The notes: generated from the sequence alone by a model not told the origin. A stretch of 64,000 nt of DNA from an uncultured Thermoplasmatales archaeon (GCA_964445525.1 CAYULA010000002.1:34576-98575); one strand, 5' to 3'; positions 8,683 to 38,634 are shown, counted from the stretch's first letter. Numbers and translations are program-made.

Positions 8683-8687
8683 AGACG

Positions 8688-13828: not shown

Positions 13829-14039
13829 TATTATGAAAATTCGTATAGGAATCAAATCTATCAAATTTAATTTATTAATATTACTATTTGTGTAACTAGA
13901 GATTAAATCACTTAATCCTTTGTTCACTCTGAAATTCTCTTACCATTGGTTGGAGATTTGTAAAAATCTTATTTATTGAACAACAATGACGAATATTTCA
14001 GATTCGGAAAAATTCCGGTAAAAACTCCGGTAAAATAAG

Positions 14040-14432
14040 TCAGATCTGATTCCATAAAAGGAAGATCAAAATCCCGTGTAAGACAGCGGAAGCTACCATT
14101 ACAACCAGGAAGCTCTTCTTTCTTGTCTTGTGACGGAAGAAGACCATACCCGTCAATCCCCCCAGGAATCCTCCGAGCACGGCCATCATGTGGAGGTTGA
14201 ACTCCGGGATCCTCTTTCCGTTGCCTTTTGCCTGCCCCTTGTCGTAGCCGTACAATCCGAAAAGCGTGACGGAGGACCCTATCATCCATGAGATGTGAAT
14301 ACCAAGTTCAAAAGGTGAGAATGCCCAGATGGGTCCCGTCAGGACCAGGCTGAGCATTAGAGGATAGACGGTCCATTCCAGTTTTGGATGCATCCTGTAG
14401 GACCCTTTCCGCCCCTTTCTCCTTCTCGACAT
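14040..14432 (-). CDS. DUF1294-family small membrane protein
   Basis: Matches the DUF1294 consensus region ...KRIPEFNLHMMAVLGGFLGGLTGMVFFRHKTRKKSF... with additional TM helices. Confidence 0.5.
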   Translation of the reverse strand: MSRRRKGRKGSYRMHPKLEWTVYPLMLSLVLTGPIWAFSPFELGIHISWMIGSSVTLFGLYGYDKGQAKGNGKRIPEFNLHMMAVLGGFLGGLTGMVFFRHKTRKKSFLVVMVASAVLHGILIFLLWNQI

Positions 14433-18054: not shown

Positions 18055-21015
18055 TCAGTGAGAGAACAGATCATCGAGATCGCTTGTATAATTCTGCCCT
18101 CCCTGTCCCTGAGGGGAGGTGTACTGGGCAGGCTGGTACTGGGAAGCCTGGGGTTGCTGATAGGTAGATTGACCCTGTTCCTGTCGGACAGGTGCCGGCT
18201 GGTAGGGTCTCAGCTGTTCCTTTTGCTGCTGGGGCTGTAGATTGGAGACCGGTTCGGCCCTCTTCTGAGCATCCGGAAGGGCTTTTTTATCCTCTTTTTC
18301 CGTGACTGCCTCCTTTGCTTGGGGTATCGATGATCTTTTCGTATAGGCTCTTGAAAACAGGAGTATGGAGACAACAATGGCCACTGATATCATGGCAAAA
18401 GCTAACAGAATACCTATCATCACCATAAGGCCCGTGGACCTGATGGTGTTCTCCATTTCCTTGTCCTCCGGTTCCGGGGAGGTCATAATATTGAGTTCCT
18501 CTCCCTCCTCGGCGTAGAAATCGGCTTCATTACCAAACTCGTCTCTGTAGCTGGTCCTTACAACCATGCAGCACTGCTCGGAATAATCCACGTGCTCTGC
18601 GGCACTGCACTGGAACGTGACAGTTGCGGTTTCTCCCGCTTCTATGGGGTCGAGCTGAACAATCGGATTATCCAGATTGATCAGGTTGTCCTTTGATAGA
18701 AGAAGGACCTCGGACCAGGTTACCCTTGCCGTGCCCGTGTTGAGGACCTTGACTGTCACGCTGAATGGTTTCCCCGGCTCAATAACCGATGACGAGGTTG
18801 ATATAACCTTGAGCTTTCCCGTGCTATCAGGTATCAATACGTAGGTCACGTAAGGCTCTTCATCGTTGAAATCCTTTGAAAAACCGTTCACATCCTCCAT
18901 GGAGGTCCTGATGGAAAGAGCATATGTGGCTCCGGGAATTGTACCTTCTCCCAGGGTGCAGTTGAAGGATATGGTCCTTTTCTGACCAAGATTGAGACCA
19001 CCAATGATAATCAGGTCGTTGTCGAATGTGAACATGTTGTCAAGGGAGGTTATGAGAACGGAGAAATCCCTTATCACGGTAGGTCCCGAGTTGATGACAT
19101 CCACATGAAGAGTGAACCTCTCGTTCACTATTTCCGAAACCCTGGTGGTCATTATGTCGATATCACCTTCACCCGGATTGATCAGTACAGAAATATCAAA
19201 TGTATTGCTCTGGACAACCCCGGTAAGGTTCCTGAAATTGATCAAGAGAGTCAGGTTCAGCTTGGTCTCGACCCTGAAGGTTCCCACATCAACAGGTATG
19301 TTCACATCGAGCGTTCCGTAGGAATTGAAATCCGCGGCGGGAATGATCATATCAATACGGTCAAGGAGTACTCCCGATCCAGGGGATCCTCCCGACCTCA
19401 CCAATCTGTCGGCTTCCGTGGTTGAAAGGATCATTGACACATCTTCCAGAGGATAGAGCTCCTTGTTGGTGACCGTGAAGGAGATCCTCTGGTCTTTGCT
19501 GGTGGAATTGAGTATGTTGTGGGAATCAACGGAGATATCAGCTCCTGCGGGATCATCCAGTACCTTAAGAATGACATAAGGACTGGGAACCTGAACCTTT
19601 CGCGGCTCATCCCTGTACCAGATTATATCGACGAAATCCTCTTTCCCCATCTCGTCCCATTGATATGAATAGAGCTTGCTCGAGACCCCCGAATCGTCGA
19701 AGGGATCCTCGAATGTGGCAAAGTAGTCCACGGGAATGATATATTCCCCCGGCGGGAGCATTTCATATACCTCGATACATGGGAAAAACACGTTGAAGCT
19801 TGTCTCGACCTTGACATCGTATTTGGTAAACTCCAGTGGTTCGTATACCTTTTCTCCGTTTCCTCCCTCGTCATACCTGTATTCGGTCTGCTTCAGATAG
19901 GTAGCAGAATCCAGGTCAAGTCTAACCGTGACCATGGCCAGATCCACATTGCCTATGTTCCTCATGTTGAAACTGATCCCGCAGGTCCTCTCCTTCTGCT
20001 CAATTGAAGCCACGGGATGATCATTTGCCATATTGGTCGGATAGAGTATCGGTGTGGATTCCACCTTGAGCCTGATCACGTATGGTCCATCAATGAACTG
20101 ATCCTCGCCTATCCTGTACCTGAAGGTGAGGGTTCCCGAGTAATATCCTGGCGGAGTTGTGTCCAGTATGTCTGTCCTCCATTTCAGTATCCTGTAGGAG
20201 CTGTCGAATATATCATAGGAAATCCTGTTTGTTACCAGCCTTATTCCTTCGTTTCCGAAATCTATGTCCGCCTTGAAATCCATGAGATTAAAGGACTGCT
20301 TCCTGAACGAATTGGTGGTCTGTATGGTCATGTATTTGGAGCCAGCATAAAGGGGTGCGGGTCCCGAACCTTCTCTTCCTTGGAGTTCGATCGGGGAATT
20401 CTGCACGCCGTACACATGGCTTCTGACGAAGAACCTGGCATATCCGTCCTGGAATTTGGACATATAATAGATCTCTCCGGGGTTTTGATCATTGTAAGCC
20501 CTTGCCACCTTGAAGCTCAACCTGAGAGGAAGGCGATAATAACCCTCTTTGATATTGGTGGCGGAAATGGTCAACTCGAAGTAATTTCCCGATTGATCCC
20601 TATAGTAATTTGCCGAATATGATATATCATAACCCTCGTTGGAGGGTCCGTTGTAAGGTGTTAGAGATCCGCTTTGAGCGGGTTGGATTATATCCCTTGG
20701 TTGACCCTCGTCATCCGTTACCGCATCTGATCTGATGGTGAGTTTCGAATCGAAAAGATAGTATCTGGCATAATAATAGTCGGTATCATCCCAGTGTCTT
20801 CCATCGTAATTATTGTAAACCCTGATCCTGAAGCTTACCCTGTCCCCTATGTAATGGGAATCGAGATAGTATGCGTTGAAGGTGCAGTACGGGTCATCTC
20901 CTTCTCCCTCTCTGGTTTCTGTTTTCCCGGCCGTGCCTGTATTGAAAATCAGCATTCCCGAAAATATCAGTATTGCAAGTACCGAAATAGATACAAACTT
21001 GCTCTTCAAATTCAT
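18055..21015 (-). CDS. Giant (986 aa) secreted surface protein with a C-terminal TM anchor and a Q/P/Y-rich cytoplasmic tail
   Basis: N-terminal signal peptide (MNLKSKFVSISVLAILIFSGMLIF). Long beta-rich extracytoplasmic region with many NxS/T sequons. A single TM near the C-terminus (LMVMIGILLAFAMISVAIVVSILLF). The tail is rich in QPQQQ...YQPAQY. Confidence 0.6.
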   Translation of the reverse strand: MNLKSKFVSISVLAILIFSGMLIFNTGTAGKTETREGEGDDPYCTFNAYYLDSHYIGDRVSFRIRVYNNYDGRHWDDTDYYYARYYLFDSKLTIRSDAVTDDEGQPRDIIQPAQSGSLTPYNGPSNEGYDISYSANYYRDQSGNYFELTISATNIKEGYYRLPLRLSFKVARAYNDQNPGEIYYMSKFQDGYARFFVRSHVYGVQNSPIELQGREGSGPAPLYAGSKYMTIQTTNSFRKQSFNLMDFKADIDFGNEGIRLVTNRISYDIFDSSYRILKWRTDILDTTPPGYYSGTLTFRYRIGEDQFIDGPYVIRLKVESTPILYPTNMANDHPVASIEQKERTCGISFNMRNIGNVDLAMVTVRLDLDSATYLKQTEYRYDEGGNGEKVYEPLEFTKYDVKVETSFNVFFPCIEVYEMLPPGEYIIPVDYFATFEDPFDDSGVSSKLYSYQWDEMGKEDFVDIIWYRDEPRKVQVPSPYVILKVLDDPAGADISVDSHNILNSTSKDQRISFTVTNKELYPLEDVSMILSTTEADRLVRSGGSPGSGVLLDRIDMIIPAADFNSYGTLDVNIPVDVGTFRVETKLNLTLLINFRNLTGVVQSNTFDISVLINPGEGDIDIMTTRVSEIVNERFTLHVDVINSGPTVIRDFSVLITSLDNMFTFDNDLIIIGGLNLGQKRTISFNCTLGEGTIPGATYALSIRTSMEDVNGFSKDFNDEEPYVTYVLIPDSTGKLKVISTSSSVIEPGKPFSVTVKVLNTGTARVTWSEVLLLSKDNLINLDNPIVQLDPIEAGETATVTFQCSAAEHVDYSEQCCMVVRTSYRDEFGNEADFYAEEGEELNIMTSPEPEDKEMENTIRSTGLMVMIGILLAFAMISVAIVVSILLFSRAYTKRSSIPQAKEAVTEKEDKKALPDAQKRAEPVSNLQPQQQKEQLRPYQPAPVRQEQGQSTYQQPQASQYQPAQYTSPQGQGGQNYTSDLDDLFSH

Positions 21016-23132: not shown

Positions 23133-26123
23133 ATGAGAACCTGGATAGTCCGCCAAATAACCGTTATGATCGCGATTGCATTGGCATTTACCGCTGTTTT
23201 ATCTCTTACGGAATCAGCGGAAGCAGGGACCCCGATGGGGGTGAGGTCCTCTACCGGATTCATCTCCATTGATGACTTCTATGTCCATAACGAATACAAT
23301 GTTGATGATCTCTGGGTAGTGGTCTGGCTGGAGAACAGGGATACCCATTACAGACAGTATTCCGACAGTGATTACTACTTCTATTACAGGGATATTGCAA
23401 ACTCGTTTGCAATTCCCGTGGACGGTTCACCCCATTCCTCCGGTGAAGAAAAGAGGGCTCTTGTGGAACTGTTCACCTCCACAGATTGCGTTTTCTGTCC
23501 GGGTGCGGTAGGAGCCCTGGATACCCTGGCAGAGGAGAGGTTCCCGGATGAGTTCTCTTTGATAGAGTGGCACAAGGCAATAAATCCCGGAAGCGATCCC
23601 TACGAAACCCCCGCCTCCAGGGGGAGGTTCTCTTCCTACAACATCTCTTCAAGACCGACAACCATCTTCGACGGGGCGACCGCAGCGGTGGGCGGAGATC
23701 AGGACCCCAACAACGTCCAGATACTCAAGAGCTACGGCAACACCATTGACCTGGTCAATTCCTTTCTTCTGCCACAGGTCAGTTTCTCTGGTTCCGCTGA
23801 CACGGGAGGGGATTACCTGTCCTACAATATCAGTTTCGAGGTGACCAATCCCATGGTCAAGGGTGATTGGGTGGTCAGGGCTGCTGTTTGCGAGGACATC
23901 GACAGCGATCACGGAGGGGCCAGGATGAGATTCGTACCCAGAGGGTCCCTGAATTCAAAGGCCCTCTCCGATCTTCAGGAGGGCCATCCGGATATCACCG
24001 TTGAGGAGGAAGCCACGTTCCAGGGTCTCGACCCCGAGGAGATAAAGGGCAATTTCACCATGAAATGGAACGCTTCCGACCCCCAGGACGGAGATGACGT
24101 AACCATTGACATTCGATACTGGGGACCTGACGATCAATGGAAAGAACTGGCCACAGGTTTGGAGAATACGGGTTCTTTCACCTGGAACACTGGGGATCCC
24201 AGGGTTCCCGACGGGCAATACGAGGTAGCCATTTCTGCCGAGGATTCCCAATCCAACTCGATCCTTGCCTCCGATCTTCTTGTTTTCATAATAGACAATC
24301 CTGATTTTCCCCATGCTAATTTCTCCTATCCGGCGCAATTCGAGACATTCAACGGAGAAGAGGAGATCAGATGGACCTCCTCTGATGACGAGGACGATTC
24401 CATGGATATGCTGGCCAGGGTCTCCATATCCAATGATACCGGCCAGACATGGAAGGTCATTTCTTTCAACAGGGTAACAGGCGAGGATTGGATCGCCAAT
24501 CTCGGATCCTTTACCCTGAACACCCTCAATTACGAGGATATTCCAACATACAAGCTCAAGGTTGACATCAAGGATACCGACAATATGATAACCACAATCG
24601 AATCCGCGGTATTCGAGATCTACAACAACGATGCACCGAGGGCCTTCCTCTACAGTCCGAAACTCGGGGAAACCATCAGTTCCGTTCTGGATATAGGCTG
24701 GAAGGTTACCGATCAGGAGGACCTCCCCTCCGCCATAGAAGGCAACTTCTCCATCAGGAAGTCCGGACAGGAGAGATGGACCGTCCTCTATGAAGGCCTT
24801 CTTGATGATGAGATGGAGAACAGGACCTTCGACACCGCAGACCTCATGGGCGACGGAGATTACGAACTGAAATTCTCCGTCGAGGATTCCAGGGGAAAAA
24901 CCCACTCCGTGAACAGGCAGTTCTCGATCTACGATCCCGATCCGCCTGTCTTCTCATCGATTTCATCTCCCAGAAAGGATCTCACAGACATCAGGGAGGA
25001 AACGATAACAGTATCATGGGAATGTTCCGACGCAGACGAGGGTGAGACCCTGAGTTATGATGTGCATATCTCCCAGGCGGATCTGGAAAACTGGACCCTT
25101 CTGGCGGAGGGATTGGATACGGAAACCTATGTGGTGGACCTGTCTCTCTTGGAGGAGGGAAGCTACAGGATCAGGGTTACGGCTGTGGATTCCTCTGCAG
25201 GGTCCCTTACCTCGGAAACATTCTTCGGACCGTTCTATTACAACGCCCCGGACAGTCCCGACATCAGCCAGTTCCTTCCTTCGGAGAACCTCGACGGCGG
25301 AATACCCTCCGACATCAATTCCACGATGGAAGCCGGAGAATTTTTCCTGGACCTCAGCTGGACAGCTTCCGATGATGACAACGACAACATCACCTTTGTA
25401 TTGCATTACAGGAAGACCGGGGACCAGGATTGGACCCTGATCGAGGACAACCTGGAGGGGAGCTCTTACAGCTGGAACATGACAGCTCTGCCCTCCGGTG
25501 AGTACCGGATCAGATTGACAGCCGTGGACGAATCCCCGGAAACATTGACAAGCCAGATGATATTGGGACCATTCAGCTGGAACAATGTTATACTGAATCC
25601 GCCTGCAGATGATGACACAGACGACGATGACGAGCCGGTCCCCGAAGATGAGGATGACAGCGACGAACCCGACTGGGGACTCTACATCATCATAGGCGCC
25701 GCCAGTGTGGTAGTTGTGATAATAGTGGTGATCCTGGCTCTGTTCATGGCTTCCAAATTGGGAAAGAGGAAAGGTAAGACCGACGTGATCCCCGATCAAA
25801 AAGACATGGATTTCACCCAGATACCCGATTTCGAGAGGAACAGGCCCCCTGTCCAGCAGCCTCCTCCCCGGCAGGTAATGGCCGGGACCTACCAGGAGCA
25901 GCAGGCTCCTGTTCAGGAGGAACCTCAGCCAACCTATCAGGAGCCCCAACCCCAAGGTATTGAGGGGAATGTGAACTGGGAAGGAGAGGACCAGTCAGGT
26001 ACGGAAAACGAATCCGTTCCCGAACAGACACAGGAATCATCCCTTCCCGAAGAGGATACCGGTGATCAGGAGGGATCGGAGGAGAGTACCAATATCGCAG
26101 CTCCTCCCGAGCCTCCTGTCTGA
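23133..26123 (+). CDS. Giant (996 aa) surface protein: signal peptide, N-terminal CxxC thioredoxin-fold domain, multiple Ig/FN3-like domains, C-terminal TM anchor, acidic and P/Q-rich cytoplasmic tail
   Basis: Thioredoxin-like segment ...ALVELFTSTDCVFCPGAVGALD...SSRPTTIFDG (CxxC plus a cis-Pro loop). TM WGLYIIIGAASVVVVIIVVILALFMA. Tail PPVQQPPPRQ...TYQEQQAPVQEEPQPTYQEPQPQ. Confidence 0.6.
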   Translation: MRTWIVRQITVMIAIALAFTAVLSLTESAEAGTPMGVRSSTGFISIDDFYVHNEYNVDDLWVVVWLENRDTHYRQYSDSDYYFYYRDIANSFAIPVDGSPHSSGEEKRALVELFTSTDCVFCPGAVGALDTLAEERFPDEFSLIEWHKAINPGSDPYETPASRGRFSSYNISSRPTTIFDGATAAVGGDQDPNNVQILKSYGNTIDLVNSFLLPQVSFSGSADTGGDYLSYNISFEVTNPMVKGDWVVRAAVCEDIDSDHGGARMRFVPRGSLNSKALSDLQEGHPDITVEEEATFQGLDPEEIKGNFTMKWNASDPQDGDDVTIDIRYWGPDDQWKELATGLENTGSFTWNTGDPRVPDGQYEVAISAEDSQSNSILASDLLVFIIDNPDFPHANFSYPAQFETFNGEEEIRWTSSDDEDDSMDMLARVSISNDTGQTWKVISFNRVTGEDWIANLGSFTLNTLNYEDIPTYKLKVDIKDTDNMITTIESAVFEIYNNDAPRAFLYSPKLGETISSVLDIGWKVTDQEDLPSAIEGNFSIRKSGQERWTVLYEGLLDDEMENRTFDTADLMGDGDYELKFSVEDSRGKTHSVNRQFSIYDPDPPVFSSISSPRKDLTDIREETITVSWECSDADEGETLSYDVHISQADLENWTLLAEGLDTETYVVDLSLLEEGSYRIRVTAVDSSAGSLTSETFFGPFYYNAPDSPDISQFLPSENLDGGIPSDINSTMEAGEFFLDLSWTASDDDNDNITFVLHYRKTGDQDWTLIEDNLEGSSYSWNMTALPSGEYRIRLTAVDESPETLTSQMILGPFSWNNVILNPPADDDTDDDDEPVPEDEDDSDEPDWGLYIIIGAASVVVVIIVVILALFMASKLGKRKGKTDVIPDQKDMDFTQIPDFERNRPPVQQPPPRQVMAGTYQEQQAPVQEEPQPTYQEPQPQGIEGNVNWEGEDQSGTENESVPEQTQESSLPEEDTGDQEGSEESTNIAAPPEPPV

Positions 26124-26125
26124 TC

Positions 26126-28846
26126 CTAAAATCCGAAGCTGAAATACGCTCCGATGGTGCTCTCGAGGAACAGAACGTAAATGATAACAAAGGATCCGGC
26201 AAGCATCAGGAGCACCGCGGATACCTTCTTTATCACCTGGGTCTTGGAAACCATCCTCTGGAGGAAACCCGAACCCGAGGCAGCCATGTAGGTGAACAGC
26301 ACCATCATGGCGCCGAGGGAAAGGGTGTAAAGTCCGAATATGAGCGCCCCTCCGAGGATCCCTCCTATTGCAAAGGAGATCAGTATCATACCGATGAATG
26401 CAGGGGCCATGCAGCTGGAGGCGGCGGCTCCGTATCCGAATCCGTATGCGAACAGTCCGCCGGCCGAGGAATCCTCCTCGGAGGACCTTCCCCTCATCCT
26501 CGCTATCATGATCTCGAAGGGCCTCTTGATGTAATCCATTCCTCTTTCAAGGAATGAATCCTTCCCTATGAAGGTCAGAAATCCCAGTATTACCAGTACC
26601 CCGCCAATGGGCAGGATCAGGAAACGAAGATACTGCTGGATCGCGCCTCCGACTATTGTAACCAGTATTCCGATGAGTATGAAGAAGGTGATTATGCCCG
26701 CAGCAGCGACCATGCCCCCGATCAGAGGATTCTGCTTTCTCCCGGTGGAGGATTCCTGGGTGATGTAATACGAGATATAACCCGGGAGCATGGGAAGGGA
26801 GCAGGGCGAGAAGAAGGTGACAATTCCGAAAAGGGCTGCTATCGATCCGAAGGCAATGAGGGACCCTCCGGTCTGGGTTATGGAGACGGCCTTGTAATCT
26901 CCGGTATGGGAATCCTCTATCTTATCAAGGACGGTATCCTTGTTGATGATCCCCGTGTGCTGATAGACGATATCCCCGTTGGGAGCAATTATTACCATCT
27001 TCGGTACCGCCAGTGCATCGAAGAGTTCAACGAAATCCCTGTTGAGGCCTATGGGCCATTCGGCCCCGTATTTTTCCTGGAAATCGTTCATGGCTTTGTT
27101 TGTATCGGCGTTGTCAACCGATACCGAAAGGAACTCCACATCATCGCCGTATTTATCTTTGGCTTCTTCGAAGACGTCAACCACGATCGGCATCTCCTCG
27201 TTGCAGCTTGCACAGGTTGTGAACATTATGTCAATAACCAGTGTCTTCCCCTCGTACATATCCGGGGTGTGTAACACTCCGTTGGTGTCGGTAACCCTGA
27301 AATCAGGAACCGATGATGTGGATCCCGTGAAAACCGAAGCGGCCGAGATCGATGTGATTATTATTCCGAGCGCCACGATTATTGCCAGACTCGCTTTCGA
27401 GGAAAACACCTTCAGCAGTCCCCCCTGGACCTTCCTCGTGGCAATGTATAGTACGGGCCCCAGTATGATCAGTATTATTCCGATTGTCAGGAACAGGGTT
27501 CCCGTCTCCATTCCGATCAGGGCCGTGTTCTTGTCCTTGGACGCCTCTTCCTGGCTTACCAGGGTGTATATCTGAGAGGAGGACTGGGCAAACTGATCGT
27601 CATAGAGCAGAACCTGGGCATAGAGAGGTCCTCCCGAGTGTTCTATCTCGGCAGTGCCGGTGGCGTCGGAGTAGGCATAGCAGACCCCCTGATCATCGCA
27701 TACCTCCTCCCCTGTTATGGTGAGTTCCACCGGTTCCCAGGAGGGCATATCCACTCCCTTCTGATTGATGAAGACGAAACCCCTGGCTATCCCACCCTCG
27801 TCATCCATGGTGACGGTGACCGTGTTATCGTTCAGTGTAAGTGACTTCACCTTTGGAGGTTGATTTTCCCTGTCGTATGCGGTGGACCTTGATGTTGCGG
27901 ACTGGACGCATCTGATGGAATTCGCCCTCTGGTTTCCGTCAGTGCCTCCGGGGCTGGAATCCGTGTCGGTGGTATCGAATATTGCGGCTACGGCATACAT
28001 GTCCTGAGCTTTTATCGGGATCGTGGCCTCGGGAATCTGGTAGGTGAAGGAGAACACCTTCTCGGTGCCCATGTTCATGGTGAATCTCTCGTCTTGTGCC
28101 GCATAGCCTCTGAAAACCGCATCGTTGGATACGTTCATGTCATATACCAGCGAATAGGCGGTGACGTTGTCTTCCACCATGAATACGTAAAGGGATCCTT
28201 GAAGGGGAAGAAGATTTCCTCCCACCATCTTTGCGTTGGCCTCGTACGTTGCCTTTACCTCGACGTAAAATGAGCTCCCGTCGAATATCTGGTCCACCTC
28301 CATCTTCACGAAGGGAAAGGACCAGGAAAGCCTGTCCATGGGCCTCATAGGGGCGTTGTCATACCTCCTCTCCGATTCCATAAGGGCCCAGTCTATCGTG
28401 GGTTTGTCTATTGGTTTATTGGAAGCCGAGAACCCGCCTATCTCGATGTATCCGCCGTCGAACTGGACATCCGGAGTACCTGCGAGGCCTGGCTGATAAT
28501 ACCTCATTCTGGCTGTGGCTTCCTCGGTATTGAGATCATCCTCGCCTCCGCCGTTCAATTCATGGAAGACCACCGTGCTGAAAGGTGCGGAAGGGTCCTC
28601 CCTGCCCTCCATATAAGTATCATGGACGGCTTTCTCGGGAGAATCCGCATCCGGTCCGCTTCCCATGCAGGCGGGACAGGATAGGCCGGTGAAGAATTCC
28701 ATGAGCGGTCTGTGAATGTAACCTTCCGGCGGTGGCGCATCGGTCTGGAATGAAGGTGCTTGGACGCCGTCTGCATTGAAAGATGTAACCAGTGATGCCA
28801 AAATGACGGCTGTCAACGATACGAGGAATATGATTCTTCCCTTCAT
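26126..28846 (-). CDS. Multi-domain thiol-disulfide electron-transfer protein: extracytoplasmic CxxC thioredoxin-fold domain, TlpA/ResA-like redoxin domain, and a C-terminal CcdA/DsbD-beta transmembrane domain
   Basis: Probable start at Met 28846 (MKGRIIFLVSLTAVILASL, signal-like). The ORF table extends it to 29083. N-terminal ...MEFFTGLSCPACMG...GTPDVQFDGG is paralogous to the Trx module of the neighbouring gene. The redoxin domain has the active site ...VIDIMFTTCASCNEEMP.... The CcdA motif ...FFSPCSLPMLPGYISY... and a second Cys-containing TM region are present in the C-terminal ~280 aa. Confidence 0.7.
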   Translation of the reverse strand: MKGRIIFLVSLTAVILASLVTSFNADGVQAPSFQTDAPPPEGYIHRPLMEFFTGLSCPACMGSGPDADSPEKAVHDTYMEGREDPSAPFSTVVFHELNGGGEDDLNTEEATARMRYYQPGLAGTPDVQFDGGYIEIGGFSASNKPIDKPTIDWALMESERRYDNAPMRPMDRLSWSFPFVKMEVDQIFDGSSFYVEVKATYEANAKMVGGNLLPLQGSLYVFMVEDNVTAYSLVYDMNVSNDAVFRGYAAQDERFTMNMGTEKVFSFTYQIPEATIPIKAQDMYAVAAIFDTTDTDSSPGGTDGNQRANSIRCVQSATSRSTAYDRENQPPKVKSLTLNDNTVTVTMDDEGGIARGFVFINQKGVDMPSWEPVELTITGEEVCDDQGVCYAYSDATGTAEIEHSGGPLYAQVLLYDDQFAQSSSQIYTLVSQEEASKDKNTALIGMETGTLFLTIGIILIILGPVLYIATRKVQGGLLKVFSSKASLAIIVALGIIITSISAASVFTGSTSSVPDFRVTDTNGVLHTPDMYEGKTLVIDIMFTTCASCNEEMPIVVDVFEEAKDKYGDDVEFLSVSVDNADTNKAMNDFQEKYGAEWPIGLNRDFVELFDALAVPKMVIIAPNGDIVYQHTGIINKDTVLDKIEDSHTGDYKAVSITQTGGSLIAFGSIAALFGIVTFFSPCSLPMLPGYISYYITQESSTGRKQNPLIGGMVAAAGIITFFILIGILVTIVGGAIQQYLRFLILPIGGVLVILGFLTFIGKDSFLERGMDYIKRPFEIMIARMRGRSSEEDSSAGGLFAYGFGYGAAASSCMAPAFIGMILISFAIGGILGGALIFGLYTLSLGAMMVLFTYMAASGSGFLQRMVSKTQVIKKVSAVLLMLAGSFVIIYVLFLESTIGAYFSFGF

Positions 28847-28957
28847 GGGGCCAGGCTCCTGGGGGTGGTAGGATATATATCTAATAAATCTGGTTATAAC
28901 TAATTTACCACTGAATGGGTGAGCAATATTTATATTCCATACCCTTTGGGCGCCACA

Positions 28958-30022
28958 ATGGACCTCGATCTCTTCGATTATGATCTGCCCCAGGAGATGA
29001 TCGCACAATCGAAATCTTATCCCAGGGATATGTCCCGTCTCTTCCATCTCGATGCCAGGGGAGCTGTTTCGAGGTATCGGCATATGAGGTTCAAGGATAT
29101 CGTTGAAAAGCTTGACCCCGGTGATATCCTGATTTTGAATCGCTCCAGGGTGATCCCAGCGAGGATAAGGACCAGGAAACCCACCGGGGGAAGGTCCGAG
29201 GTATTGCTCCTTGGAAGATCGGGCCGATTTGATTGGGAAGCACTTGTCGGCGGGAAAAGGATCGAGGAAGGCATGGTTCTACTCACCAAAGTGGGTGACA
29301 TGCGGATATCCGTGGAAAGGAGATTGGAAGAGGGAAGGTGCATGGTTTGCTTTTACCGGGACGGAGAGAAGGTTCCCCACCATGAAGTTCTGGAATGGCT
29401 CAGTGAATTCGGGCTGATGCCAACTCCCCCATACATCAAAAGGATGCTCTCCGATCCCGAGGAGTATCAGACGGTTTACGGCAACATAGAGGGATCGGTT
29501 GCCGCTCCAACCGCTGGACTTCACTTCACGGACGAGCTGTTGGAGAGCATCAGGAAAAAAGGAGTGGAGGTGTTGTTTGTTGTACTCCATGTCGGGTTGG
29601 GTACTTTCGCTCCTGTCAAATCCGCCAACATCAAGGATCACGTTATGGAGGAAGAGGAATACCTGGTACCTCCGGAAGTTGCTGAAAAGATAAGGGAAGC
29701 GATCTCTGATCATGATAAAGGCAAAAAGAGGATATGGGCAGTGGGGACAACCGTCATGAGAACACTGGAATCCGCATTCGACGGCAATGGAAATCTTGTG
29801 AAATCATCGGGAAGAACCGGACTCTATATCACCCCCGGATATCAATTCAAGATTCCATACAAGGGTTTCATCACCAATTTCCATCTTCCGAGGTCCACCC
29901 CTCTGATACTTGTCTCGGCCTTTCACAACCGGGAGGGAATTCTGGATGCTTACGAGGAGGCAAAGAGGGTGGGATACAGGTTCTATTCACTCGGTGATTC
30001 CATGATGATAAGGAAGGGATGA
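28958..30022 (+). CDS. queA: S-adenosylmethionine:tRNA ribosyltransferase-isomerase (QueA)
   Basis: DLFDYDLPQEMIAQ...PRDMSRL..., ...VAAPTAGLHFTDELL..., ...VGTTVMRTLES..., ...TNFHLPRSTPLILVSAF...YRFYSLGDSMMI. These match QueA along its full length. Start at Met 28958. Confidence 0.8.
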   Translation: MDLDLFDYDLPQEMIAQSKSYPRDMSRLFHLDARGAVSRYRHMRFKDIVEKLDPGDILILNRSRVIPARIRTRKPTGGRSEVLLLGRSGRFDWEALVGGKRIEEGMVLLTKVGDMRISVERRLEEGRCMVCFYRDGEKVPHHEVLEWLSEFGLMPTPPYIKRMLSDPEEYQTVYGNIEGSVAAPTAGLHFTDELLESIRKKGVEVLFVVLHVGLGTFAPVKSANIKDHVMEEEEYLVPPEVAEKIREAISDHDKGKKRIWAVGTTVMRTLESAFDGNGNLVKSSGRTGLYITPGYQFKIPYKGFITNFHLPRSTPLILVSAFHNREGILDAYEEAKRVGYRFYSLGDSMMIRKG

Positions 30023-31382: not shown

Positions 31383-33971
31383 ATGGATACAAAGAACAAT
31401 AGAAAAATGGGGATGGCAGCTTCTGTCATTGTCATATTGATGGGAATGGCAGCCCTGGGATTATTCGTTCCGGGCCAGGCCAACGGAGATGCGGTATGGG
31501 ATGGCCATCTGGTCAGTTCTGCATCGGTGGACCCTACATGGGTCTACAGCACCTCAACGGTTGATGTCAACATATCATATTCACTTGCTCCCGAGGATAT
31601 GAATCTGGAGCTTTCAAATCTGACCATAACCGTTGTGGAAGTAAGTTCGGGAGTCCTTCCGATGCCGATCTATAACTGGAACAGGACAGGAGACGGCGGA
31701 ATGCCGGACAATCCTTATACCTGGTCCCTGGACGGAAGCCAGGGAATAGGTGATTGGATCATCAACGTTACCGCGGATTATCACAACTCCACTCTGGGAG
31801 ATGATCATTACGGTTCCGAAGAGATCCATTTTCAGGTGATCGACGGAACCCACATCATACAGGATATATCCGCCGAACCCAAAATAGTGAAAAACAACGG
31901 AATGGACATGGTCAACATGAGTTTCATGTTCAACAGGAACTTCGACGAGATGGACATGGACAGGACAGAGGCCATGTTCTTCCACGTGGATACCATGTCA
32001 TGGGTCGATGACGAGACCCTGATGGTTCCCGAGCCCGCACCCGAAAATATCACAGACGGATTCCACAACTCATCTGTCTGGTCACACATGACCATACCCG
32101 AGGACCTCCCTGTGGGCGAATACAAGTTCTACTTCAACTTCTTCGACAGGTGGGGATACAATGAATCCATAAACGAGACCGTCTTCGAGGTCATCTGGAA
32201 AGAGCTCCCGCCGGTGATGGTGAACGATACCATCTACATACACGAGGATGGATTCGAGATAGTCGATCTCGATGATCACTTCGAGGATGTCAACGGACAG
32301 GAGCTGATGTATTACATCAACATGTCTCAATTCGAGAACCTGATGATAACCTGGGAAGATGAGGCAGAAAACCATATCAACGTGACCGCCGCCGAGAACT
32401 ATTTCGGCACGGAGACCTTTGACCTCAATGTCACAGATGGAATAGACATGCCCGGTCACAACGTGACCTTCACCATGACGGTCAATGTCATGCCTGTGGA
32501 GGATCCGTTGATGCCGGCAGAGGACCTCACCATCGAGGTCAACGAGGTCACCAAGGAAGCCCTGTTCAATCCCCAGGATCTCTTCTACGATCCTGACGGC
32601 CCCGCCGAATTCACGGTATCGCTCGGCACCGAGATGGTGAACGTCTCCGGCAACATGACCGAGATGCCCGCATGGACCTGGACGGATGGCAACTTCTCCA
32701 TTGCGATCAACGAGACCGACAACACCGTTGGAACAGCGATCATATTGGAGGACATGGAAGAGGGAATGGCAAACTTCCCAATCTATGCGTGGATGAACGA
32801 ATCCATCGTGCTCATGGAAGAGGCAACCGTGATGGTCCAGGAGGTCAACGACGTCCCGATGCCCCTGAACGACACCTTAACGATGTTCAAGAACGAACCC
32901 TTCACAGGGAATCTCTCGGAACTGTTCATGGACCCCGACAGCGAGATGCTGAACTTCACGGTCAATGACACCATGGCCGAGAATGTTGCGGTGGAGTATG
33001 ACTGGATGACCCATACGCTGACGATCACTCCTATATTGAATTGGACAGGAACCACCACCTTCATGGTTAATGCCACAGACGGTATCGATTATCAGGAATA
33101 CACCATGAACGTTGAGGTGATCCTCAGGTCCTACGAGGTCAGCGGAACCATAACCTTCGAGGAGGTTGCCGGTGTCGATGTGAACCTCTCAAACGTCACC
33201 ATGATGATAGGTGAGACCGAGGTGGTCCTGGCGGATGACGGAACCTTCTCGGTCATGATCGAAGAGGGAGACTACGAAGTCACTCTCGAGATACCTGATG
33301 AACTCACCTATTCCGAGGCTGATGAGAGGTCCGGTTACGAGATCCCGACCCTGGATCCCATCAATCTTACAGCGGATGAGACCTACGATGTGTCTGTTAC
33401 CTACATGGAATACAATGCATCAGCCGGGGAGGCCTCCTGGGATGATCTCGACTTCGAGAATGTGGAGTTCGACGACGACGATGACCTCATGGTCATGCTT
33501 CCCGTCATGGAGGGCACAGAGAACTACACCGGATGGGACACATTCGTTGTCAAGCTGGTCATAAGGGAGTCAGATGACGAGGAGCTCAACTTCACCATGA
33601 CCTGGGACGACGATAACGACAGGTTCACCGTCACCCTAACTGACGAGGACCTGGAGGACCTTGGTGATGGCAAGAAGGAATATTACTTCATGAACGAGGA
33701 CGGGACCCTCACATCGGATGAGGAGAAGTACGAGTTCAAGAGCGAGGACGAGAACGCAGGTCCCATGACCATCATAATTCTCGTCGCATTGATCCTTCTG
33801 GTGCTCATTGCCCTTATCTTCATCATGAGGAAGCCTTCAGAAGAGGACTTCGATGAGGAAGAGGAAGATGAGGAGGAAGAGGGGAGGACCTGCCCCGGAT
33901 GCGGTGAGACCGTAACCGACGATGAAGCAGAGGAATGCCCCTACTGCGGTGAGGACCTCGAAGAAGAGTAA
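31383..33971 (+). CDS. Large (862 aa) acidic, Met/Asn-rich secreted protein with a C-terminal TM anchor and a cytoplasmic CxxC...CxxC zinc-ribbon tail
   Basis: Signal peptide (MGMAASVIVILMGMAALGLFVPGQA). Many NxT/S sequons. TM PMTIIILVALILLVLIALIFIM. Tail ...EEEDEEEEGRTCPGCGETVTDDEAEECPYCGEDLEEE. Confidence 0.55.
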   Translation: MDTKNNRKMGMAASVIVILMGMAALGLFVPGQANGDAVWDGHLVSSASVDPTWVYSTSTVDVNISYSLAPEDMNLELSNLTITVVEVSSGVLPMPIYNWNRTGDGGMPDNPYTWSLDGSQGIGDWIINVTADYHNSTLGDDHYGSEEIHFQVIDGTHIIQDISAEPKIVKNNGMDMVNMSFMFNRNFDEMDMDRTEAMFFHVDTMSWVDDETLMVPEPAPENITDGFHNSSVWSHMTIPEDLPVGEYKFYFNFFDRWGYNESINETVFEVIWKELPPVMVNDTIYIHEDGFEIVDLDDHFEDVNGQELMYYINMSQFENLMITWEDEAENHINVTAAENYFGTETFDLNVTDGIDMPGHNVTFTMTVNVMPVEDPLMPAEDLTIEVNEVTKEALFNPQDLFYDPDGPAEFTVSLGTEMVNVSGNMTEMPAWTWTDGNFSIAINETDNTVGTAIILEDMEEGMANFPIYAWMNESIVLMEEATVMVQEVNDVPMPLNDTLTMFKNEPFTGNLSELFMDPDSEMLNFTVNDTMAENVAVEYDWMTHTLTITPILNWTGTTTFMVNATDGIDYQEYTMNVEVILRSYEVSGTITFEEVAGVDVNLSNVTMMIGETEVVLADDGTFSVMIEEGDYEVTLEIPDELTYSEADERSGYEIPTLDPINLTADETYDVSVTYMEYNASAGEASWDDLDFENVEFDDDDDLMVMLPVMEGTENYTGWDTFVVKLVIRESDDEELNFTMTWDDDNDRFTVTLTDEDLEDLGDGKKEYYFMNEDGTLTSDEEKYEFKSEDENAGPMTIIILVALILLVLIALIFIMRKPSEEDFDEEEEDEEEEGRTCPGCGETVTDDEAEECPYCGEDLEEE

Positions 33972-33997: not shown

Positions 33998-34025
33998 GGG
34001 GGCTTCTTTCGAGGCCCCTTTTTTT
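33998..34025 (+). terminator. GC hairpin (GGGGC ... GCCCC) followed by T7 just after the stop of the 31383..33971 gene
   Basis: ccgggggcttctttcgaggcccc followed by ttttttt. Confidence 0.45.
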
Positions 34026-34125
34026 ATGTACATTTACAAGTAATGTTTATAAATAAAAAGATGTTTTTAATTAAGTCCAGTGTCCTGTAATTGAGGGCAG
34101 GAACAACTCTGATGGGTGAGGGAAG

Positions 34126-37100
34126 ATGAAACGAGAGGTATTCGCGGTACTGATTACATTCGGATTGTTATTGGTAACTGGAGAATCAGTTTTCGGTATA
34201 ATTGCCGAAAATGAGGATATTGAACCCATGATTCCAGAATTTGATTTTCAGTTTTCAGGAGGAAATGGGACCAAAATCAATCCATACAAAATCTCGAACA
34301 TAACGGAGCTCCAATGGATGGGAAATACGTCGAATCTGGATAAACATTTCATTTTTATAAACGATATCAATGCATCCGCAACTTTAACCTGGAATGGAGG
34401 AAATGGATTCGATCCGGTTGGTGATTCAAGCAACCGCTTCGATGGCTCGATTAACGGCAATGGTTACAAAATAATAAATTTATTAATAAACAGATCGAGT
34501 GATGACTTTGTAGGGTTGGTAGGTGATCTTGGAGTAACAGGATATCTCTCCAATATCACAATGCTAAATGCCTCGATAAATGGCGAGGACATTTGCGGAA
34601 TTCTTGCTGGCAGATCTTTCAAAGGAACAATTCATAATTGCTCCGTAAACGGATCGGTGAAAGGATCAACAAATATCGGAGGTTTGGTTGGCAGAAACCA
34701 TGAAGGAAAAATTTCAAATTGCTTTTCTGGTTGTAATGTAATCGGGAGGGGACAGAAAATTGGAGGTATGGTAGGTTATAATGAAGATGCAAAAACTTTT
34801 GAAAACTGTAGTTCAAGATCTTATGTTAAGGGAACTGAAAATGTTGGAGGATTGATTGGAGATAATGAAGGATCATTTATTGAATGGTCGAATTCAACAT
34901 CCATGGTGATTGGAACCGGAGCTGTGGGAGGTTTAATCGGGTATAATCATTTTTATTCAAGAATTACTAATTGTCATTCGAGATTTGAAATAAATTCCAC
35001 AAGAGATAATATTGGAGGACTTATCGGGAAGAATCAAAACAACTGTCCAATATTCCACAGTGGTTCAATTGGAAAAATAAATGGTAGGAATCAACTTGGA
35101 GGAATTGCAGGTTACAACAATCAAAAAATCATCAATTCATCCTCAGAGGTTGAAATAACAGGTCAAAGTATGATTGGAGGTTTAGTAGGAGAAAATCATG
35201 GAGAAATAAGGAATTGCACGGCTGATGCTGAAATTGAAGGTGTCCAAAGATTAGGAGGATTGGTTGGTGATGGTAGGGACAAATCGATTTATGATAGTAT
35301 ATCTTATGGAAATGTTACAGGAACCACTTACTATATCGGAGGATTTGTAGGTGGTATTATTTCGATTGATGTAATCAATTGTCGATCATATGCTAATGTT
35401 AATTCAACAGGAGAATATGTTGGTGGATTTGCGGGTTATCCAAGTTTATCTAATATAAAGAATAGTTTATCCGATTGTGAAGTAAAGGGAGAAACCAACG
35501 TGGGAGGTTTTTTAGGTGTAAACTCTTATTGTATCATTGAAAATTGTCATTCATTTGGATGGGTTAACAGTACAAAGGATTATACTGGCGGTTTCATAGG
35601 ATTGAATTTAGGTACGATATCAAATTGTTCCTCCCTTTCAAATGTTAACGGAAAGAAATCCACTGGAGGTTTAATTGGAAAGAACAATAATAATTATGAA
35701 ATTAAGGAATGTTTCTCCAATGGTAATGTTACAGGAACCGATTACATAGGTGGTTTAATTGGTGAGAATTACGGTAAAATCTTGAATTGTTATTCTCAAG
35801 GTGGTGTGAATGGACCTATGAATAAATTGGCATATTTTGGTGGTTTATTAGGATATAATAACGGTAGAGTAACAAATTCGTATTCCACAGGAAAAGTAAC
35901 CGGAACATTTAGGAAAGGATTCATTGGTGATAATTACGGAACAGTTCAAAATAGCTTTTGGGACTATGAATCTTCAGGAGTTACATATAGTGACGGTGGA
36001 ACAGGAAAAAACTCTTCCGAGATGAAATCTCAGAACACATTTTCATCAGCAGGATGGGATTTCAACGAAACCTGGTACATTATTGAAGATGAAACCTATC
36101 CAATGTTATCCAATAATTTAATGGATTATTCCGTTCCGGTATTTCTTGATGATTATACAAATATTTCAGGGTCTACCGGGACCAATTTTACCTTTAACAT
36201 TAGTGTAACAGATAATATTGGTTTAAGTTTTGTAATGGTAGAATTCTGGTATGGCAATGGTTCGCATTTAGAAAAACAATTGAAGCTCAATAATACATAT
36301 AAAACCTTTACTGAATTGCCCGTTAATTCCACTGATACCCTATATTATTTTTTTCACGCAAGAGATTTCAAGGGAAATACTAATTCTACACCAATAAAAA
36401 ATGTAACAATCAATGATATTTTGATCCCGTTTTTTAGTAATGAAACAACACAAAATAATGGTACGACCGGTGATCAATTTCAATTCAAGATATATGCATA
36501 TGACAATATCGGTATCCAGAACGTATATTTGGAATATTGGTCAAACTTCACAAAGAAAACTAATGTTTCCATGGAGGAAAACGGTTATTTTATCAAAAAT
36601 ATACTTTTACCCTCCAATGTAACAAATATCTCTTATCAGTTCCATGCAGTGGATTTATCTTTCAATTGGAAAAGCACAGATGTAAAAACTTTATTAGTAT
36701 TGGATAACGACAAACCTCTATTTGGTAAGGACCTCACTGCTGATAACTGGACAACAGGAGATATTGTCGAATTTTCCATTATTGTACAGGATAATATCAA
36801 TGTCAATAGTGTCAAAATAGAATACTGGTTCGGTTCGGGACCTCGATTCAATGAATCCATGGTTTTCGATTCTGGATCCTATACCTTCGATCTCATGATC
36901 CCCCCGGATTCGCTTGATCAGCTTCACTACATCTTCCATGCGGTGGATACCTCGGGCAACTGGAACAGGACCGATCAGATCGATGTGGCTGTTCTGGATG
37001 ATGATAGACCAATCTTTGGTATGGATGGATCTGCGGTTCTGGGAACCACAGGTGAACAGTACCGTTTCGGAATCGGAGTGGTTGACAATATCGGTATCGA

Positions 37101-38634
37101 GGAGGTCAAGGTGGAATACTGGTTCGGAGAAGGGCCTCACACCAATGTCACAATGACCGGGGGCGGTCCTTTTTCCCACATTGCCGATATACCACTGGAT
37201 TCTTCAGAAACACTGCATTACATCTTCCACGCATCGGATACCTCCGGCAACTGGAACCATACCCCGCAGGTGGATGTGGATATACTTGACAACGATCTGC
37301 CGGCATTCATGGAGGATCTCTCAGATACCACGGCGACAACGGGTGATAATTTCTCTTTCGAGATCGAGGTGACTGACAACATCGGTATCTCCGATGTTTA
37401 CGTGGAGTACTGGTTCGGGACCGGAGACCATAACAATGAATCCATGATTTCAGTGGATTCCTTTGGTTTGAGAATCGAGATCCCATCCGACTCGGTGGAG
37501 AGGCTCAATTACATCTTCCATGCAGTGGATGAATCCGGGAACTGGGCACACACGGACCGGGTGGATATCCAGATCGCAGATAATGACATGCCGGAAATGA
37601 TCGCCGACGAGAGTCCGGACGAAGCTTTTACCGGAGAGGATCTGGAGATAATTATCCGTGCAACCGATAACATCGGGTTGGCAGAGGTCGAACTTATCTG
37701 GATGATCGGATCGGATATTGATGAACAAAGAGTCGATATGGACCTCGAGTCAGGGAATTATGTTCACACCATCCAGGTTCCGGTCGATACGGTTGATCCT
37801 CTCCGGTACGTGATGAGGATAATCGATACCTCGGGTAACATATTCGAATCGGATGAAGCAACCATTACCATAACTGACAGTATATCTCCAACCGTCGATC
37901 CTGTGGATGATATCACTGTTTATGATGGACAGGACCTCGATGTCAATGTAACAGGGTCGGATAATATCGGTATCGCTTCATATTCGTGGGAAGGAGCTCC
38001 CATCGATGCAGATGGTTCCGAACTGAAAGGGATCGTGACAGTTCCGGGTGATCATGATATCACTGTCACCATTTCCGATGAGGAGGGCAATACCGATTCC
38101 ACTACTTTCAGAGTCACGGTTCTTGCGGAGGACCATGACACTGATTCCGACGGCATCCCGGACCTAGTCGAAATGGAGTGGGGCCTCTCCATCGAGGATC
38201 CTTCGGATGGCGAGGAGGATGCAGATAATGACGGGATGTCCAATGCTCTGGAGTATGCGAACGGGACCCTTCCCTTTGATGATGATACCGATGATGACGG
38301 AATGCCGGACGGATGGGAGGACAGCTACGGCCTGGATCCAACGACCTCCTCTTCAGATAACGATGCCGATGGTGACGGCAAGACCGACCTTGAGGAGTAT
38401 CGGGAAGGTACCGATCCTCTGATCAAGGAAAAGGAAGATGACGATGATGGCGGAGGATCCCCGATAGTGATCATTGTGATCATCGCGGTTGTTATCCTCA
38501 TTGCTATCGGTCTTTTGCTGTTTTTCCTTACCAGAAAGAAGGAAGAAAAATTGGAAAATGAGCCCTCCGATGGTCAGGACACATCAGAAAATGCTATTGA
38601 GGATCCAAGAGATGATGAAAATGAAAATCCTTGA
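34126..38634 (+). CDS. Giant (1502 aa) surface protein. An N-terminal array of ~25-aa GLUG-type repeats, eight ~100-aa Ig-like repeats, thrombospondin-type-3-like Asp-rich calcium-binding repeats, a C-terminal TM anchor and a short acidic tail.
   Basis: GLUG-like periodicity (...NIGGLVGRNHEGKISNCFSGCNVIGRGQKIGGMVGYN... repeated ~25 times). The repeated module ...DNIGI..V..EYWFG.G... occurs eight times. DTDSDGIPD, DADNDGMSN, DTDDDGMPDGWEDSYGLDP and DNDADGDGKTDLEEY are also present. TM IVIIVIIAVVILIAIGLLLFFL. Confidence 0.6.
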   Translation: MKREVFAVLITFGLLLVTGESVFGIIAENEDIEPMIPEFDFQFSGGNGTKINPYKISNITELQWMGNTSNLDKHFIFINDINASATLTWNGGNGFDPVGDSSNRFDGSINGNGYKIINLLINRSSDDFVGLVGDLGVTGYLSNITMLNASINGEDICGILAGRSFKGTIHNCSVNGSVKGSTNIGGLVGRNHEGKISNCFSGCNVIGRGQKIGGMVGYNEDAKTFENCSSRSYVKGTENVGGLIGDNEGSFIEWSNSTSMVIGTGAVGGLIGYNHFYSRITNCHSRFEINSTRDNIGGLIGKNQNNCPIFHSGSIGKINGRNQLGGIAGYNNQKIINSSSEVEITGQSMIGGLVGENHGEIRNCTADAEIEGVQRLGGLVGDGRDKSIYDSISYGNVTGTTYYIGGFVGGIISIDVINCRSYANVNSTGEYVGGFAGYPSLSNIKNSLSDCEVKGETNVGGFLGVNSYCIIENCHSFGWVNSTKDYTGGFIGLNLGTISNCSSLSNVNGKKSTGGLIGKNNNNYEIKECFSNGNVTGTDYIGGLIGENYGKILNCYSQGGVNGPMNKLAYFGGLLGYNNGRVTNSYSTGKVTGTFRKGFIGDNYGTVQNSFWDYESSGVTYSDGGTGKNSSEMKSQNTFSSAGWDFNETWYIIEDETYPMLSNNLMDYSVPVFLDDYTNISGSTGTNFTFNISVTDNIGLSFVMVEFWYGNGSHLEKQLKLNNTYKTFTELPVNSTDTLYYFFHARDFKGNTNSTPIKNVTINDILIPFFSNETTQNNGTTGDQFQFKIYAYDNIGIQNVYLEYWSNFTKKTNVSMEENGYFIKNILLPSNVTNISYQFHAVDLSFNWKSTDVKTLLVLDNDKPLFGKDLTADNWTTGDIVEFSIIVQDNINVNSVKIEYWFGSGPRFNESMVFDSGSYTFDLMIPPDSLDQLHYIFHAVDTSGNWNRTDQIDVAVLDDDRPIFGMDGSAVLGTTGEQYRFGIGVVDNIGIEEVKVEYWFGEGPHTNVTMTGGGPFSHIADIPLDSSETLHYIFHASDTSGNWNHTPQVDVDILDNDLPAFMEDLSDTTATTGDNFSFEIEVTDNIGISDVYVEYWFGTGDHNNESMISVDSFGLRIEIPSDSVERLNYIFHAVDESGNWAHTDRVDIQIADNDMPEMIADESPDEAFTGEDLEIIIRATDNIGLAEVELIWMIGSDIDEQRVDMDLESGNYVHTIQVPVDTVDPLRYVMRIIDTSGNIFESDEATITITDSISPTVDPVDDITVYDGQDLDVNVTGSDNIGIASYSWEGAPIDADGSELKGIVTVPGDHDITVTISDEEGNTDSTTFRVTVLAEDHDTDSDGIPDLVEMEWGLSIEDPSDGEEDADNDGMSNALEYANGTLPFDDDTDDDGMPDGWEDSYGLDPTTSSSDNDADGDGKTDLEEYREGTDPLIKEKEDDDDGGGSPIVIIVIIAVVILIAIGLLLFFLTRKKEEKLENEPSDGQDTSENAIEDPRDDENENP

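Follow-up and report, generated by a model that had tools for sequence, protein, structure and literature searches.

A 64,000-nt stretch of DNA from an uncultured Thermoplasmatales archaeon (GCA_964445525.1 CAYULA010000002.1:34576-98575; hereafter the window, from whose first letter coordinates are counted) contains a convergent pair of ~3-kb genes encoding large surface proteins that share a thioredoxin (Trx)-like head. The plus-strand open reading frame (ORF) at 23133..26123 (+) encodes a 996-amino-acid (aa) protein with a long stalk, and the minus-strand gene at 26126..28846 (−) encodes a 906-aa fusion protein ending in a CcdA-type membrane core. The longest frame of the latter is 26126..29083; its upstream extension of 79 codons overlaps queA, which starts at 28919, and the homologues P0001 and P0002 are 906 aa long and begin at the Met equivalent to 28846. 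Hence, the gene most likely starts at Met 28846, from which its residues are numbered here. An initial annotation, made from the sequence by itself, had reported two giant convergent ORFs; both are present, with the start of the minus-strand gene probably at 28846 and not 29083. The motifs it quoted are all found in the translations (ELFTSTDCVFCPGAVG, RPTTIFDG, MEFFTGLSCPACMG, TPDVQFDG, TTCASC and FSPCSLPMLPGY). The two stop codons lie only 2 nt apart (26123..26126), leaving no space for separate terminators, so that the transcripts of both genes may overlap; the corresponding spacing in loci of relatives is 4 nt (L001), 2 nt (L002) and 58 nt (L005).

The fusion protein (all features on the minus strand) combines a signal or anchor segment, an HBP35-like Trx fold, two β-sandwiches, a transmembrane (TM) hairpin, a TlpA-like redoxin and CcdA, in this order. 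The N-terminal signal peptide or signal anchor (aa 5-23; 28778..28834; Kyte-Doolittle peak 2.46) is followed by an acidic stretch of 427 aa (28 Lys/Arg and 66 Asp/Glu in the hydropathy and charge analysis). A Trx fold of the HBP35/DUF1223 type (aa 48-159; 28370..28705) carries the first CxxC motif, C57-P-A-C60 (28667..28678), with T124-P125 occupying the cis-Pro position. Joined to this fold is a first β-sandwich (aa 178-318; 27893..28315), the counterpart of that in HBP35 and DUF1223 proteins, and a second β-sandwich, seen in the AlphaFold2 (AF2) model (aa 332-430; 27557..27853), bears the Cys pair C383/C389 within the motif CDDxGVCYAY. The chain is then predicted from hydropathy to form a two-helix membrane hairpin (27332..27496), with TM segments at 451-469 and 487-505 connected by a basic 17-aa loop (four Lys/Arg, no Asp/Glu). 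This brings the chain back outside, and an acidic stretch of 155 aa lies between the hairpin and the polytopic C-terminal region.

The redoxin domain (aa 511-635; 26942..27316), with its CxxC at C545-A-S-C548 (27203..27214), matches Pfam Redoxin (E 3e-12; 46.9 bits against a cutoff of 26.6) and AhpC-TSA (36.3 against 26), as well as Thioredoxin_8. Its best solved relatives by sequence are Bacillus subtilis ResA (1st9, E 4e-10) and Bradyrhizobium japonicum TlpA (1jfu, E 5e-5). A match to Pfam SCO1-SenC also exceeds its cutoff (36.2 against 22.8); a copper chaperone was nevertheless rejected, as the motif is CxxC (CASC) and not the CxxxC that binds copper together with a distal His. The membrane core (aa 661-906; 26129..26866) matches Pfam DsbD_TM (PF02683) over aa 671-883, covering profile positions 9-210 of 219 (E 6e-9; 35.9 bits against 27.1), and its best solved sequence relative is Thermus CcdA (5vkv, E 1.2e-3). 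Both expected Cys are present, C682 in FSPCSLPMLPGY (26801..26803) and C812 in AASSCMAP (26411..26413). The top NCBIfam match is ResA, on the redoxin (E 1.7e-16; 60.6 bits against a cutoff of 170); scores were also obtained for TlpA (33.2 against 230), StoA (27.3 against 210) and DsbD (17.4 against 330). All four lie below their cutoffs, so the domains are to be regarded as members of the ResA, TlpA and DsbD superfamilies and not as equivalogs. The second, TlpA/ResA-like redoxin and the CcdA-type C-terminus proposed in the initial annotation are thus both borne out by profile searches, and its order of Trx, spacer, redoxin and CcdA holds, although it had overlooked the membrane hairpin at aa 451-505 that precedes the redoxin. 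The ~700 aa it had assigned to the outside of the cell was too large, the computed part being ~580 aa (427 + 155). Hydropathy and the positive-inside rule agree with its placement of the Trx domains outside; all soluble redox domains are predicted to be extracytoplasmic, and we hold this topology, together with the domain identities, with high confidence.

The plus-strand protein consists of a signal peptide, a Trx-headed N-terminal module, Ig-like/fibronectin-III (fn3) repeats, a TM anchor and a Pro/Gln-rich cytoplasmic tail. Hydropathy places TM segments at aa 5-23 and 852-870, on either side of an acidic ectodomain of 828 aa. In the N-module (aa 41-278; 23253..23966, +) a β-sandwich is wrapped around a Trx fold (aa 109-211) that contains the CxxC C119-V-F-C122 (23487..23498, +). 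The repeat stalk (~aa 300-815; 24030..25577, +) is matched by the Pfam families Kre9_KNH (E 7e-11), fn3 (E 3e-9), Big_7 (E 8.5e-8) and Big_13 (E 1e-6), and the C-terminal anchor (aa 852-870; 25686..25742, +; hydropathy peak 3.37) is followed by a tail of 126 aa. The large ORF at 18055 has a similar ending, with a TM helix and then a cytoplasmic tail rich in Pro and Gln. Residues 103-264 match the NCBIfam Omp28-related selenoprotein family (Omp28_seleno) with E 3.7e-12, the score of 46.3 lying below the cutoff of 200, and the Pfam DUF1223 match is weak (15.5 against 30.7). The full-length protein as query retrieved 33 homologues. Its first 306 aa retrieved none in a word-indexed search, which was judged an index artefact because the protein itself is a cluster representative in the database searched. 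The CxxC is invariant in 32 of 32 homologues, including a paralogous subgroup at ~20-30% identity.

The heads of the two proteins are paralogous, as the initial annotation had suggested: the N-modules share 27% identity over 108 aa in BLASTP (E 1e-4), and a profile-profile comparison gives 96% probability (E 2.5e-9). A joint alignment of both families retains an invariant set of Glu, Thr, Cys, Cys, His, Arg, Tyr, Pro, Asp-Gly and Gly-Gly, and the ELFT..CxxCP segment of the joint profile matches Atu2684 (E 1.7e-5), the Methanocaldococcus jannaschii thioredoxin 1fo5 (E 7e-5) and HBP35 (E 6e-4). AF2 structure prediction was applied to the two N-modules, and both models agree with the Trx folds anticipated for the CxxC segments, with Pro at the cis-Pro position. 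Specifically, the shared module is of the HBP35/DUF1223/Omp28 kind, a thioredoxin with an attached β-sandwich: it can be superposed on 5y1a (HBP35) and 2axo (DUF1223), and HBP35 is the closest solved relative. Membership of DUF1223 or Omp28 is not obtained by sequence profile, the scores being under the cutoffs; the N-half of the fusion in the window has no match to either profile, and 21 of 48 relatives match Omp28 below cutoff. In the N-module of the fusion family the T-P at the cis-Pro position is invariant. Such a T-P is typical of Trx folds of the reductase/isomerase type.

The fusion protein was aligned with 59 homologues of 30-98% identity. C57 and C60 are present in 58/58, C389 of the second β-sandwich in 57/57 and C383 in 53/57, and the redoxin pair C545/C548, as well as C682 and C812 of the core, in 48/48 each. 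Retention of the Cys motifs across homologues indicates that they are under selection and not present by chance. Length and architecture alike are preserved at identities as low as 30%, in 48 clusters. When GTDB was scanned with one genome for each species, 39 loci of the family were recovered, all from uncultured archaeal metagenome-assembled genomes and nearly all labelled Thermoplasmatota or Thermoplasmata; an EX4484-6 isolate is among the carriers, as is a representative of Thalassarchaeaceae. In an exhaustive phmmer search against 1.84 billion representatives, 113 matches reached E ≤ 1e-30. Among these, the unit of anchor, redoxin and CcdA (query aa 485-893) is commonly free-standing, in proteins of ~400-450 aa, and is also found behind other, unrelated N-terminal extensions. 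A second redoxin lies upstream of the redoxin–CcdA part in P0153, P0132 and P0180, hence three-module relays recur; PKD repeats are inserted between redoxin and CcdA in P0209 and P0220. The HBP35-like half occurs by itself in P0074 and P0083, and on fn3 stalks in P0249. The architecture had been called unusual, which applies to the lineage-specific HBP35-like front half and not to the redoxin–CcdA fusion, which is common. The novelty is one specific combination, that of an HBP35-like half with redoxin–CcdA; a fusion of Trx and CcdA as such is not new. Our literature searches turned up no description of this architecture, nor of any Thermoplasmatota CcdA system, in keeping with the initial annotation, which did not recognise it as a described archaeal system.

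A single gene encodes both the N-half and the redoxin–CcdA half in ~30 species representatives. In eight representatives of a marine clade (L037-L040, L042, L043, L046 and L048), which are distinct species ~30-38% identical to the query, the two are split into adjacent co-directional genes. The junctions were read in detail in four of these eight (L039, L040, L042 and L043), and in each the break falls exactly in the predicted cytoplasmic loop of the hairpin: the first ORF ends just past the first hairpin helix with a short basic tail, and the second, after a gap of 43-64 nt, encodes a cytoplasmic segment, the second helix, the redoxin and CcdA. That the break lies in a loop predicted to be cytoplasmic supports the hairpin topology. 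Furthermore, the splitting of the gene at this loop is the strongest evidence that the HBP35-like and redoxin–CcdA halves act together. Two further candidates (L007 and L008) were rejected as natural splits: their downstream ORFs begin within the redoxin profile (positions 19-25), indicating frameshifts or assembly errors.

Clustering of the neighbourhoods in distant clades revealed no conserved Msr or peroxiredoxin substrate gene, and only lineage-level synteny, with aminotransferase, NadA, CutA1 and ThiI in one clade and DUF3335, PhoU_div and PHO4 in a second. In the ~35%-identity clade, CutA1 lies 2-3 kb downstream of the fusion, past the aminotransferase and NadA genes, in four distinct genomes (L003, 12944..13309; L024, L032 and L033), and an identical CutA1 is found in L004 and L028. 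This placement resembles that of the Escherichia coli cutA locus, where cutA1 adjoins dsbD (dipZ). The proximity may be mere synteny.

Considered together, the domain order, the invariant Cys and the gene split lead us to favour, by a modest margin of confidence, the view that the product of the minus-strand gene belongs to the DsbD superfamily and is a thiol-disulfide electron relay contained in a single polypeptide. By analogy with what is known of the family, cytoplasmic thioredoxin would reduce the core Cys C682 and C812, which would in turn reduce the outward-facing, covalently attached redoxin at C545xxC548, as for CcdA with ResA, CcmG and TlpA. The redoxin could then pass electrons to C57xxC60 of the HBP35/DUF1223-type module on the same chain, with the hairpin holding this module at the membrane. 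The module would act as a terminal reductase or isomerase for Cys-containing surface targets of the archaeon. In favour of the relay, HBP35 reduces insulin in a CxxC-dependent manner, faster than E. coli thioredoxin (PMC2907840). In terms of roles, the N-half would correspond to DsbDα or ScsBα, the redoxin to DsbDγ and CcdA to DsbDβ. The individual steps are not equally secure: transfer from CcdA to the redoxin is likely, and transfer from the redoxin to the N-module in cis is somewhat better than an even prospect.

Several observations weigh against this relay. Stand-alone N-half genes without a nearby CcdA exist in L006, L009 and L031, so fusion to a conduit is not required for the module to work. 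The residue ahead of the cis-Pro is variable in the plus-strand family. Furthermore, HBP35 complemented an E. coli dsbA mutant (PMC2907840), hence modules of this type can act as oxidants. In an alternative explanation, the HBP35-like modules are not supplied by the relay at all and have a surface role of their own, such as DsbA-like oxidation, haem or metal binding, or copper tolerance, being merely co-localised or co-expressed with CcdA. HBP35 binds haemin through its non-Trx region in addition to complementing dsbA (PMC2907840), and the His, Arg, Tyr and Asp that are invariant beyond the CxxC in both N-module families form a candidate ligand site; the stand-alone N-halves, the CutA1 gene downstream of the fusion in four distinct genomes and the above-cutoff SCO1/SenC match of the redoxin point the same way. 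However, fusion or fission with a reductant conduit is kept across lineages at only 30-35% identity, and an oxidase would not be expected to need such a supply. The SCO1 copper motif is missing from the redoxin, and the T-P at the cis-Pro position is in line with a role as reductase or isomerase. We therefore regard a role independent of the relay as unlikely.

A function in cytochrome c maturation, in which a fused ResA/CcmG–CcdA reduces apocytochrome CxxCH and the N-half is an unrelated passenger, is suggested by public annotations reading 'cytochrome c biogenesis protein CcdA', by ResA being both the best solved match of the redoxin (E 4e-10) and the top NCBIfam match, and by the adjacency of ccmG and ccdA in Methanosarcina (PMC9084895). 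Against it, the ResA score falls far below its cutoff (60.6 against 170), no CxxCH motif occurs in any real gene of the 64-kb window, and no Ccm or Ccs gene is found among the annotated genes of the window or the related loci. An aldehyde:ferredoxin oxidoreductase in the window suggests an anaerobic lifestyle, and ccmG and ccdA of Methanosarcina acetivorans are dispensable for cytochrome c maturation (PMC9084895). Nor would such a function explain the invariant CxxC of the fused or adjacent N-half. Cytochrome c maturation is accordingly the least probable of the functions considered here, and we give it little credence.

Whether the plus-strand neighbour belongs to the proposed relay is a separate matter. 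The initial annotation had cast it as a plausible client or partner, for which the shared module and the adjacency speak, but the adjacency is kept only in one syntenic clade and in L041. With its paralogous module on a ~500-aa Ig/fn3 stalk, the protein could be an acceptor in trans, one of several Trx-headed surface proteins. Within the clade at at least 50% identity, the convergent pair is kept in all 14 loci with enough flanking sequence (L001, L002, L005, L010, L011, L013-L018 and L021-L023). All 14 also share the complete block of tgt and queA, the fusion, the convergent plus-strand gene, dus and eamA; as tgt, queA, dus and eamA are kept too, conservation of the pair is inseparable from background synteny. 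In addition, the pair is absent from the ~35%-identity clade, and paralogous proteins of the plus-strand type are located elsewhere without a nearby CcdA. Tandem giants of ~940-1150 aa with the same CxxC Trx head are found in L049 (8001..11144 and 11255..14068) and L050 (384..3383 and 3523..6951), with no CcdA nearby, suggesting that Trx-headed stalk proteins form a multi-copy family. Divergence is also quicker in the plus-strand protein, whose identity in L005 is 39%, than in the fusion, where it is 54%.

Adjacency by inherited gene order, the plus-strand protein being one of many Trx-headed surface proteins or adhesins, is about evenly balanced against the other possibilities on this evidence. 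What such an account does not readily accommodate is that a rare module is common to both proteins, that 2-58 nt separate the two stop codons at the loci checked, and that convergent pairing of both module types recurs independently in L041. There, a stand-alone N-half gene (5926..7299, +) converges with a gene for a 332-aa protein (7366..8364, −) that is Omp28/DUF1223-like (Omp28 E 3e-8, DUF1223 E 2e-6); the context is unrelated to the main block, with ftsY upstream, and the 13-kb locus contains no CcdA. We consider it possible, though rather doubtful, that the plus-strand protein is a client of the relay.

The putative relay shares with DsbD and ScsB a membrane core with redox-active Cys in TM1 and TM4 (PMC3322552), two extracytoplasmic Cys-pair domains on the same chain, one of them Trx-like, and a presumed cascade from cytoplasmic thioredoxin to acceptors outside. 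It differs in having a six-TM core of the CcdA type, not one of eight TM, and in its order of 'α', hairpin, 'γ' and 'β' with nothing C-terminal to the core, where DsbD is arranged α–β–γ. Furthermore, the archaeal 'α' is an HBP35/DUF1223-type Trx with β-sandwiches, unrelated to the Ig-like DsbDα, and the protein scores only 17.4 against the NCBIfam DsbD cutoff of 330. The CcdA class is defined as consisting of the membrane domain only, and ScsB as having Lys at the eighth position after the first TM Cys (Cho et al. 2012, PMC3322552). The fusion protein carries the mark of the CcdA class, two redox Cys in TM1 and TM4 within Pro-containing motifs, and departs from the 'membrane domain only' definition in that ~660 aa with two CxxC domains precede the core. 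C682 is followed by S-L-P-M-L-P-G-Y, which places Tyr at position 8 and not the ScsB-specific Lys.

A CcdA core with a membrane-anchored extracytoplasmic CxxC redoxin is also seen in the CcdA systems with ResA, CcmG or TlpA (System II; M. acetivorans MA4254/MA4255). In those the two parts are separate, whereas they are fused in the archaeal protein, whose HBP35-like half has no counterpart there and around whose genes, in the window and the loci, the cytochrome c context was not found. Compared with HBP35 of Porphyromonas gingivalis (5y1a), DUF1223 (Atu2684, 2axo) and Omp28, the archaeal proteins have sequence similarity far under the family cutoffs, are TM-anchored with neither C-terminal domains of the type IX secretion system nor lipoprotein signals, and present the module fused to a CcdA relay or on ~1000-aa stalks. 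DipZ of Mycobacterium tuberculosis (5cyy) is a CcdA-like TM domain fused to Trx-like and carbohydrate-binding-module-like domains. The soluble domains of DipZ are C-terminal to the membrane core and contain a single Trx-like domain, whereas those of the archaeal protein are N-terminal and comprise two redox modules. Finally, in the Streptococcus pneumoniae CcdA–Etrx–MsrAB2 pathway (PMC3914529), CcdA feeds Trx-family proteins exposed at the surface of a cell that has no outer membrane, which makes the pathway a model of how such a surface could be protected or repaired; its parts are separate lipoproteins. Near the archaeal genes, neither an Msr nor a peroxiredoxin partner was found.

A second protein of the DsbD superfamily is encoded in the window at 54902..55636 (+). 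This stand-alone membrane protein of 244 aa has six hydrophobic segments and a C23-x3-C27 motif at the end of TM1, and it exceeds the cutoffs of both Pfam DsbD_2 (E 5.8e-13) and DsbD_TM (E 1.2e-7), which upholds the initial suspicion of a relationship. Directly upstream (52891..54855, +) lies the gene for a 654-aa protein of the signal-peptide-peptidase (presenilin) type, with an N-terminal extension of ~450 aa that has no Pfam match. The window is rich in surface proteins of ~860-1500 aa (CARDB, Big_9, GLUG and subtilase-PKD), with large ORFs at 18055..21015 (−), 23133..26123 (+), 31383..33971 (+), 34126..38634 (+) and 58926..63278 (+). The C-terminus encoded by the ORF at 31383 comprises a TM helix and a CPGC…CPYC zinc ribbon; P0249 resembles it in having a cytoplasmic tail with CxxC, and zinc-ribbon domains are also present in the 1072-aa neighbour in L003. 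The stretches at 12001..14000 (GC 0.38) and 34001..38000 (0.36-0.42) are low in GC compared with ~0.51 elsewhere, hold a Schlafen/AlbA_2–HATPase_c_4–HTH gene (12338..13828) and a 1502-aa GLUG-repeat protein, and may be horizontally acquired islands. At 6142..9302 (+), the gene for the 846-aa aldehyde:ferredoxin oxidoreductase, which is extended N-terminally by ~120 aa, precedes that for a ThiF-family protein, suggesting that the host has an anaerobic, ferredoxin-based metabolism.

The architecture described here is real, conserved and uncharacterised, made of familiar parts with predictable logic, and the fusion looks like a lineage-specific variant of the DsbD-type systems by which bacteria export reducing power. 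Archaeal cell-surface thiol-redox chemistry is almost unstudied, and in M. acetivorans, the sole archaeon tested, ccmG and ccdA proved dispensable for cytochrome c maturation (PMC9084895). The fusion protein offers a compact, testable case: a single chain bears three invariant CxxC or Cys-pair stations, abundant marine archaea, among them a representative of Thalassarchaeaceae, provide a naturally split version, and candidate acceptors have the same head. A more speculative scenario, which we consider improbable, is that Thermoplasmatota have a dedicated 'surface thioredoxin' system, in which the multi-copy giant stalked proteins are kept reduced by a CcdA-fed relay that bears an HBP35-like head itself. 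This would allow disulfide reduction or isomerisation away from the membrane, with S-layer or adhesin cysteines, partner cells, or environmental disulfide or organosulfur substrates as targets, and would be an archaeal extracellular redox function without a described equivalent. Should the relay itself prove true, three-station cascades of the DsbD kind would have arisen independently with a different 'α' module, and the archaeal protein would provide the first functional handle on the HBP35/DUF1223/Omp28 thioredoxin-like domain beyond Bacteroidota.

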